Origin: an uncultured Thermodesulfobacteriota bacterium | Lineage (GTDB): Bacteria > Desulfobacterota > DSWW01 | DNA: 64,000 bases | Direction of reading: 5' to 3' | Assembly (NCBI GenBank): GCA_964479535.1 | Contig: CAYZMM010000001.1 | Coordinates: 327,902 to 391,901, forward strand | Part shown: one piece after another, positions 38,783 through 39,172 of the stretch | How positions within the stretch are numbered: the first letter of the stretch is position 1 | Layout: each line of letters starts with the position of its first letter | The notes under the pieces: model-generated | The model's database searches: none | Seen by the model: the letters and a program-made list of their open reading frames with translations, nothing else | What the model was told of the DNA's origin: nothing | Translations under genes and position numbers: made by a program

Positions 38783-39172
38783 ATGCGAATTCTGGTCGTG
38801 GACGACGAACAGGTGAGCCGGAACGTGCTGCGAAAGGCGATGGAATCCTTCGGTCCGTGCGAGGAAGCCGAGGGCGGGCGGGAGGCCACGGCCGCCTTCG
38901 ACAGGGCGTGGGAGGAGTCTTCGCCCTTCGACCTTCTCCTGGTCGATCTCTCCATGCCGGACATGGACGGACGCGAAGTGATCCAGCAGATCCGCAGCCG
39001 GGAAGAGAGCATGGAGGTGCCTGCGGCGGCTCAGGCGAAGATCGTCGTCGTCACATCCCACTCGGAAAAGGACACGGTCCTTTCCTGCCTACGGGCCGGG
39101 TGTGATGATTTCATCGTGAAGCCCTTCGAACGCGACGTTCTCTCCGCGAAACTGGCGGAACTCGGTTTCTAG
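38783..39172 (+). CDS. standalone CheY-like response regulator receiver domain
   Basis: MRILVVDDEQVSRNVL...FDLLLVDLSMPDMDGREVIQQIR...KIVVVTSHSEKDTVLSCLRAGCDDFIVKPF. SD GGGGGAGAGG before ATG. Only plus-strand gene within the flagellar cluster. Confidence 0.8.
   Translation: MRILVVDDEQVSRNVLRKAMESFGPCEEAEGGREATAAFDRAWEESSPFDLLLVDLSMPDMDGREVIQQIRSREESMEVPAAAQAKIVVVTSHSEKDTVLSCLRAGCDDFIVKPFERDVLSAKLAELGF

Follow-up and report, generated by a model that had tools for sequence, protein, structure and literature searches.

The 64,000-nucleotide stretch analysed here (positions 327,902 to 391,901 of contig CAYZMM010000001.1 from an uncultured Thermodesulfobacteriota bacterium; hereafter the window) carries, at 38783-39172 on the plus strand, a gene for a REC-only single-domain response regulator of 129 amino acids (aa; hereafter REC) in the middle of a flagellar gene cluster that is otherwise encoded on the minus strand. 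REC codes for protein and evolves under purifying selection. Its product is of an ordinary type; the unusual feature is the placement, which is shallow in evolutionary terms: the gene lies antisense between a gene for an E-ring protein and fliK. We tentatively suggest that REC is a single-domain regulator that is fed by a phosphorelay, was recently recruited to the flagellar regulon and acts on a flagellar target, a reading to which we give a little less than an even chance.

The identification of REC combines its open reading frame (ORF), Pfam, alignments, an AlphaFold2 (AF2) model and substitution rates. The product matches Pfam PF00072 (Response_reg) with E=1.2e-23 and 83.8 bits (cut-off 30.2) over 110 of the 111 profile positions. 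The ATG at 38783 is the earliest possible start, with an in-frame TAG stop at 38771-38773, and the stop-to-stop frame (38774-39172) has space for the receiver only and for no output domain; most orthologs are 128-136 aa long and the N-terminus MRILVVDD agrees with theirs. The key residues are D7, D8, the phospho-acceptor D55, T91, the aromatic F110 and K113; family alignments of 18-22 sequences show no variation at D7, D8, D55 or K113 and next to none at T91. The AF2 model (mean predicted local distance difference test score 93.3) has a (βα)5 fold in which five strands alternate with five helices, and a Foldseek comparison of this model with the PDB gave 526 matches at E<=0.001, the top 50 of which are all receiver domains. 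The GC content at codon positions 1, 2 and 3 (0.68/0.41/0.80) is as in well-supported genes of this window of 62% GC, and the ratio of nonsynonymous to synonymous substitution rates (dN/dS) is 0.10-0.18 against four orthologous genes, at dS 0.9-1.8, and 0.10-0.23 between the orthologs themselves. Profile score, catalytic residues, fold and length together place REC in the receiver-domain family and in its stand-alone class, and these data together with the strands of the neighbouring genes bear out the stand-alone antisense receiver gene proposed in the initial annotation. Three long ORFs overlap REC (38210-39061, 38581-39012 and 38572-39105), one of them in another plus-strand frame and two on the minus strand; none matches a Pfam family, and we consider them spurious. 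A purine-rich tract, AGGGGGAGAGG, read from the sequence at 38772-38782 (+), abuts the ATG and is a putative ribosome-binding site. As the strong Shine-Dalgarno sequence with which REC had been credited it is plausible as a tract, whereas "strong" is generous given the spacing of only 3 nt between the GGAG core and the ATG; the relatives of REC carry GGTGGA at -11 to -6.

Around REC, the genes follow each other in the order flgE, flgD, fliK, REC (+), a MotE/FlbB-type gene, fliJ, fliI, fliH, fliG, fliF, fliE, flgC and flgB. As first described, REC is convergent with the operon that starts at flgB and divergent from fliK. It had also been described as the only plus-strand gene in about 40 kb, and this solitary position extends to about 51 kb: with the exception of REC, minus-strand genes run from that of a PilZ protein (1066) to that of a GGDEF protein (51978), and plus-strand genes resume at 52228. 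The sole stretch that otherwise looked plus-coding is the minus-strand csrA gene (14451-14660; MLVLTRKSGEGLWIGDDIRIQVL...), which is located between flgL and fliW and falls below the 110-aa ORF list. Gene names are from Pfam scans of long ORFs, except that flhA, flhB, fliR, fliQ and fliM were named by position and by synteny with relatives.

Comparison with related loci supports the proposal that REC is an insertion. The window shares the canonical fliJ-flbB/ylxF/motE-fliK synteny that large fla operons have in Bacillus, Borrelia and many phyla in its order flgB-flgC-fliE-fliF-fliG-fliH-fliI-fliJ-flbB followed by fliK-flgD-flgE, and the location of the E-ring gene next to fliK is a widely conserved adjacency (PMC13023049); in the window, unlike in that arrangement, the adjacency to fliK is broken by an opposite-strand gene and the E-ring protein carries a SPOR domain. 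An antisense REC gene between fliK and the SPOR gene is also present on contigs L002, L003, L088/L089 and P0007, counting those close homologs that have a readable context and noting that L088 and L089 are near-identical contigs from two samples; on L086, fliK and REC are seen and the contig ends before the SPOR gene. REC-less loci were found by anchoring on FliI. In a sister lineage (L097-L101, FliI about 70% identical), fliJ, a 196-aa FlbB-type gene, a GC-rich hairpin followed by GTCTT, a palindrome, a σ54 promoter and fliK-flgD-flgE follow each other on the same strand, and even a profile search revealed no receiver ORF. On L172 (FliI 80%, SPOR protein 48% identical) the SPOR fusion is present and a 515-bp gap contains the palindrome and the promoter without REC, and on L173 (FliI 85%, SPOR protein 60% identical) the 544 bp next to the SPOR gene lack REC. 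Because REC-less lineages already have this boundary, REC entered an existing operon boundary and split no operon. The idea that transcription of REC would terminate or split the upstream operon is therefore unneeded, REC-less lineages having both the hairpin and a separate σ54 promoter for fliK. These comparisons point to the following order of events: (i) an ancient boundary that separates the flgB from the fliK unit, (ii) the SPOR fusion, and (iii) insertion of REC in a sub-clade. The lineage that bears the flagellar REC is narrow and uncultured and probably belongs to the Thermodesulfobacteriota. In the literature, we found no description of a receiver gene located between flbB/ylxF and fliK.

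REC was inserted next to a promoter region that is shared by lineages with and without it. The start of fliK (hook-length control; Pfam Flg_hook; 37159-38469, minus strand) is corrected here to the ATG at 38469: fliK orthologs begin with MELLL or MDLLL, which corresponds to this ATG, and in three of four cases in-frame stops lie just upstream. The 464-aa version of fliK that starts from TTG 38553 is an artefact, and its extra codons are a σ54 promoter and the 5' leader (38469-38553). The initial annotation had concluded that the region upstream of fliK lacks a σ54 motif; this is refuted by a conserved -24/-12 element of the fliK-flgD-flgE unit at 38537-38552 (-), TGGCATGTGTTTTGAA, and by a palindrome upstream of it, and the motif had been missed because the spurious TTG 38553 was taken as the start. 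The σ54-type element was identified by motif match and is conserved in relatives, reading TGGCACGTGTCTTGAA or a near variant in four REC-bearing relatives, TGGCACGGCAATTGCC or TGGCACGCCAATTGCC in the REC-less sister lineage, and TGGCACGGTTTGTGCT in L172. The palindrome, CAGGGAACGATCTTCCCGTCCGGAAAGAATTTCC, is located at 38619-38652 (-), about 70-100 bp upstream of the σ54 element, resembles an upstream activator site and is conserved in REC-bearing L002, L003, L086 and L088 as well as in REC-less L097, L100, L101 and L172. A similar TTTCC-N-GGGAAGA element is present at 46233-46265, upstream of the σ54 promoter of flgB, which is a perfect match at 46164-46179 (-). Judging from sequence, the palindrome is a putative binding site of the σ54 activator encoded in the cluster. 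In the window, a 12-nt direct repeat, TTCCGGACGGGA, which is a half-site of the palindrome, occurs within and beside it, at 38600-38611 and at 38628-38639, 28 bp apart, and the extra copy is found in the window only.

Between the palindrome and REC, a second block (GGGTCATGTAACCGGCCGCTTCTTCCGATCC in the window, GGAATCAC..TTTCTTCCGATG in relatives) is conserved at 38697-38727 (+). A motif search located this block upstream of REC in L002, L086, L088 and L092 and returned no copy between flbB and fliK in REC-less loci; the copy in the window is too divergent for the motif search and was placed by alignments only. We suggest the block as a candidate promoter or operator of REC.

At the other end of the gene, the stop codon of the E-ring gene (39179-39181) is separated from that of REC by 6 nt. 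No intrinsic terminator was found near the convergent stop codons or in the two 5' regions on either strand, and the RNA fold z-scores around the stop codons and in the 5' regions are -0.5 to +0.2. If both transcripts are made, they must share a 3' overlap, since the gap is 6 nt and no terminator was found. REC-bearing relatives have 65-215 bp between the two stop codons, with long hairpin elements in this space. In L088, inverted-repeat elements of 110-120 bp (7791-7909 and 8451-8574) with arms of 20-31 nt are present on either side of REC, and in L002 such an element was detected on the side of the SPOR gene only (8457-8560). These elements are built of TTAGGTA- or TTAGCTG-like units and may be related to repetitive extragenic palindromes or miniature inverted-repeat transposable elements, or may be bidirectional terminators; the window has neither element.

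The family to which REC belongs is set apart from generic CheY proteins. A homolog search gave 16 clusters at 67-75% identity and six more at 41-54%, followed by generic CheY-type proteins, with E-values falling from about 1e-28 to about 1e-11. Among GTDB species representatives, which do not include the genome of the window, the best matches are 47-48% identical and are found in metagenome-assembled genomes (MAGs) of Syntrophales and Desulfobacterales. In a search with a profile of the family alignment, the ranking was dominated by multi-receiver proteins by virtue of their summed domain scores, and the search carries little information on family size. The contexts of the more distant members suggest where the phosphoryl group might come from. 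Members that are 54% (L004/L091), 47% (L006) and 38% (L012) identical to REC directly follow genes for giant GAF/PAS hybrid kinases that end in REC and histidine-phosphotransfer (Hpt) domains, the type being a PAS-rich HisKA-HATPase-REC-Hpt kinase; another member follows a REC-HisKA kinase plus a further receiver, and others lie beside HD-GYP, SpoIIE or PilZ genes. On two independent contigs, one of them from a Desulfobacterales MAG, a glgB-like gene is immediately followed by a member with 48% identity (L007, 2731-3132; L090, 1982-2383), and the glgB neighbourhood is a second conserved context of the family.

The sequence of REC at the five positions of helix α1 that bear on partner choice is VSVKA in the window and its clade, VSKKI or VSKMI in the Hpt-linked members, TMINL in Escherichia coli CheY, TMINV in deltaproteobacterial CheY and DMAET in the receiver of the local FlrC-like regulator. 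REC thus shares none of the five positions with the FlrC-like receiver and none with CheY; its α1 positions resemble those of the Hpt-linked members rather than those of CheY or of the FlrC-like regulator. In superpositions of the AF2 model, template modelling (TM) scores were 0.85 for GacS D1 (root mean square deviation, rmsd, 1.4) and 0.85-0.86 for Sln1 and the HK6-Hpt complex, with an rmsd of 1.4-2.0 overall; Vibrio cholerae CheY3 is equal by TM-score (0.85), and E. coli CheY gave a TM-score of 0.79 with an rmsd of 2.6-2.9. The edge in structural fit of Hpt-partnered receivers over CheY in these models is small and not decisive.

Receivers that exchange phosphoryl groups with Hpt domains (GacS D1, Sln1 R1, plant AHK proteins and the terminal regulators of His-Asp-His-Asp relays) are thus alike to REC in giving its best superpositions, and the match to the AHK4 receiver profile covers nearly the full length of REC. 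Unlike these receivers, REC is free-standing, has no Hpt gene in the window and has only a presumed donor. A parallel by description and by fold is McvR of Xanthomonas campestris, a single-domain regulator with phosphorylation site Asp55 that affects motility and is not the chemotaxis CheY (PMC8995066); like REC it is a stand-alone receiver with Asp55, whereas it is not reported to lie antisense within an array of flagellar operons (PMC8995066).

The REC family is small and probably deltaproteobacterial, and one copy was inserted antisense in the gap between the σ54-dependent flgB...fliJ-flbB/motE and fliK-flgD-flgE operons, just outside the upstream activator site of the fliK promoter. Combining these data, we suggest that REC is a functional, phosphorylatable receiver which descends from terminal acceptors of hybrid-kinase/Hpt relays. 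In this model, a hybrid kinase whose gene lies elsewhere in the genome would phosphorylate Asp55 through its Hpt domain, and phosphorylated REC would contact a flagellar target protein, candidates being the LSQEEVDALL peptide at the N-terminus of FliM or a regulator of flagellar gene expression. Motility would in this way respond to a non-chemotactic, PAS-type signal such as redox or energy state. The data establish the gene and its fold, purifying selection, the history of the insertion, how the promoters in the gap are arranged and the linkage of distant relatives to Hpt kinases; we infer the phospho-donor, the target and the co-expression with flagellar genes. An Hpt donor is favored because distant family members follow HK-REC-Hpt kinases (HK, histidine kinase), and a flagellar target is favored because the FliM peptide is kept, because several positions of the FliM interface are conservatively matched and because McvR provides a precedent. 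FliM of the window keeps the canonical CheY-binding peptide LSQEEVDALL at its N-terminus, and the FliM-binding positions A90, I95, Y106, V108, K119 and K122 of CheY correspond to S94, V99, F110, V112, K123 and E126 of REC. Four or five of these are conservatively matched, as is common among receivers in general; K123 is invariant across the REC family. In a more elaborate version of this model, REC would be a lineage-specific control point that is fed by Hpt, is expressed from an activator region shared with the hook operon and binds the N-terminus of FliM or the Flr regulators as a brake or checkpoint, with the antisense 3' overlap balancing E-ring and hook expression; taken as a whole, we consider this version distinctly unlikely.

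A number of observations weigh against the phosphorelay model. The Pfam scans of long ORFs detected no Hpt protein and no hybrid kinase in the 64-kb window, and the 1808-aa HK-REC-Hpt kinase of L091, used as a query, had no match on the window, L002 or L003 contigs among the best 120 matches. The argument from specificity is weakened in that the five helix-α1 positions are ones that we take, from the co-variation literature, to govern the choice of kinase or Hpt. The α4-β5-α5 output face is nearly alike in flagellar-context and kinase-linked members, so that nothing in it points to adaptation toward a flagellar target. In the plus strand of 38554-38782, searches returned no σ54 motif with <=2 mismatches and no σ28 motif (TAAA-N15-GCCGATAA) with <=3 mismatches, and no match to a σ70-type consensus was found near REC; σ54 and σ28 sites of this organism are recognisable elsewhere, at flgB (46164) and the flagellin gene (13961). 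Finally, the flagellar linkage is limited to one shallow clade in which REC is 67-75% identical, so that the conserved position of REC may merely reflect recent common ancestry.

These points lead to the first alternative, in which REC is a functional regulator of an unrelated pathway that landed in a permissive gap between operons and was kept by descent without a role in motility. The many unrelated contexts of its homologs (hybrid kinases, glgB, HD-GYP, SpoIIE and PilZ), the restriction of the flagellar context to one shallow clade with its absence in the closely related L172 and L173, and an output face that is unchanged relative to non-flagellar members all fit this alternative, as do the inverted-repeat elements that bracket REC in relatives, as at an insertion hot spot. 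On the other hand, position and orientation have persisted despite largely saturated synonymous divergence (dS 0.9-1.8 in comparisons with the window), a conserved block that is specific to REC lies beside the fliK activator site, and the 51-kb cluster has picked up nothing further. Weighing both sides, we regard this alternative as less likely than the phosphorelay model but as its serious rival.

Alternatively, REC could be an auxiliary CheY that is phosphorylated by CheA and binds the N-terminus of FliM, providing an extra switch signal or a phosphate sink for chemotaxis. REC and the CheY proteins of E. coli, Thermotoga and V. cholerae are alike in size, in consisting of a single (βα)5 receiver, in the catalytic quintet and in the aromatic switch residue (F110 for Y106), and CheY proteins are the top PDB matches of REC by sequence and by Foldseek. 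In favor of a CheY function, the best matches outside the family are CheY proteins at about 33% identity, orthologs of REC are labelled CheY by the Joint Genome Institute (JGI), the LSQEEVDALL peptide is present in FliM and the CheY interface positions K119, Y106, V108 and I95 are conservatively matched. REC differs from CheY, with which it shares 28-33% identity, by insertions of 5 and 6 aa and at all five α1 positions (VSVKA versus TMINL), and no che genes are nearby, none having been detected by Pfam scans of long ORFs in the 64-kb window. Moreover, REC scores 54.0 bits against NCBIfam CheY NF007901 (cut-off 189) and 55.2 bits against NF041367 (cut-off 200), below both, and deltaproteobacterial proteins named CheY by NCBI (P0100) are only about 31% identical to REC. 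These differences exclude REC as a CheY equivalog, although it may still act in a CheY-like way at the motor. Overall, we consider an auxiliary CheY unlikely.

A third possibility is that REC competes for, or acts as a sink of, the FlrB-like kinase and in that way tunes the FlrC-like activator and the σ54-dependent fliK-flgD-flgE and other units. Receiver-only regulators such as Sinorhizobium meliloti CheY1, Caulobacter DivK and Bacillus subtilis Spo0F, like REC, lack an output domain and act by phosphotransfer or protein contacts; phosphate-sink or allosteric modes are listed as alternatives for single-domain regulators (PMC8995066), and sinks are an established design, as for S. meliloti CheY1 (cited in PMC8995066). 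REC lies within the same regulon as the kinase and beside an activator site of a σ54 promoter. Unlike those regulators, REC is so far without a cognate kinase, and its specificity residues mismatch those of the FlrC-like receiver at all five α1 positions. The kinase, which had been called adjacent to REC, is in fact 8.4 kb away: the PAS-containing FlrB-like histidine kinase is encoded at 47549-48832 (-) and the FlrC-like σ54 activator at 46228-47580 (-). Furthermore, the relatives of REC pair with Hpt domains rather than with plain FlrB-type HisKA kinases, and sister lineages keep the same Flr genes without REC. This possibility appears very unlikely to us. Least of all do we favor a cis-acting antisense device, in which convergent transcription would disturb, or trigger processing of, the 3' end of the flgB...flbB transcript or insulate it from fliK: the 6-nt gap in the window and the lack of a detected terminator on either strand would suit it, but strong purifying selection and an intact active site show function at the protein level, the gap of 65-215 bp with hairpin elements in relatives shows that the tight overlap is not conserved, and the operon boundary is older than REC, which makes it highly improbable.

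The convergent neighbour of REC is of interest in its own right. The gene at 39179-40144 (-) encodes an E-ring protein of the MotE/FlbB/FlgY type with a C-terminal peptidoglycan-binding SPOR domain (Pfam SPOR, E=7e-13), together with a weak match to MgtE_N and a match to NCBIfam collar_FlbB at E=1.5e-8 that is under the cut-off of that model. The name ylxF-like given to it at first holds in so far as this is an flbB/motE-like E-ring gene; homologs of the SPOR-bearing protein are named MotE by JGI, and Pfam adds the SPOR domain. The SPOR fusion is restricted to about 38 protein clusters, the closest relative (P0121) being 82% identical, and the FlbB-type protein of the sister lineage, with 196 aa, is without SPOR. 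SPOR is nowhere mentioned in a 2026 review of the E-ring (PMC13023049).

The remainder of the cluster has a conventional composition in an order that runs, from the start of the window and on the minus strand, from PilZ through a block of glycosyl- and methyltransferase genes to fliS, fliD, flagellin, fliW, csrA, flgL and flgK; continues with flgN, flgM, a flgJ-like gene, flgI, flgH, flgA, flgG, flgF and a gene for a protein with the C-terminal domain of FlhB; and proceeds with fliA, a flhG-like gene, flhF, flhA, flhB, fliR, fliQ, fliP, fliO/N, fliM and fliL to the genes around REC, where flgE is located at 35101-36390 (-) and flgD at 36440-37096 (-). In this order, a minus-strand gene for a TPR protein comes after the FlrB-like kinase. 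One end of the cluster is formed by the gene for the PilZ-domain protein (1066-1566, -), which has a σ54-like site at 1632-1647, and the other by that for a GGDEF diguanylate cyclase (50893-51978, -), a hint of control of the motor by cyclic di-GMP. The block at 1792-10532 (-), beside fliS, fliD and flagellin, encodes glycosyltransferases (family 9, Glyco_trans_1_2/DUF3880 and a Maf-like N-domain) and a methyltransferase fusion and is probably a flagellin glycosylation island. A protein of 162 aa (22823-23311, -) corresponds to the C-terminal domain of FlhB only (Bac_export_2 positions 262-334), and a full-length flhB is encoded separately at 29554-30636.

Sites of the σ54 type with 0-1 mismatch are found on the minus strand at 46164, 34754, 22728, 10578, 8079, 1632 and 50767, ahead of flgB, fliL, flgF/G, glycosyltransferase genes, PilZ and the TPR-kinase-FlrC unit. 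Across the window there are 25 matches of the σ54 type versus 18 expected, which is not above chance; their placement before operons is suggestive. A textbook σ28 promoter, TAAAGTTT-N11-ACCGATAG, is located at 13961-13987 (-), upstream of the flagellin gene (12959-13801).

For the annotation of this and related genomes, the corrected start of fliK and the assignment of its own σ54 promoter and activator site to fliK-flgD-flgE are useful, and the flbB/fliK junction is to be seen as an ancient operon boundary. For flagellar structure, the SPOR-fused E-ring protein may matter more than REC. If the link of REC to motility is true, the gene would represent a datable capture of a receiver of a hybrid-kinase/Hpt relay by a flagellar regulon, and would provide this lineage with a sensory input that bypasses chemotaxis, for which the related genomes with and without REC would serve as natural controls.

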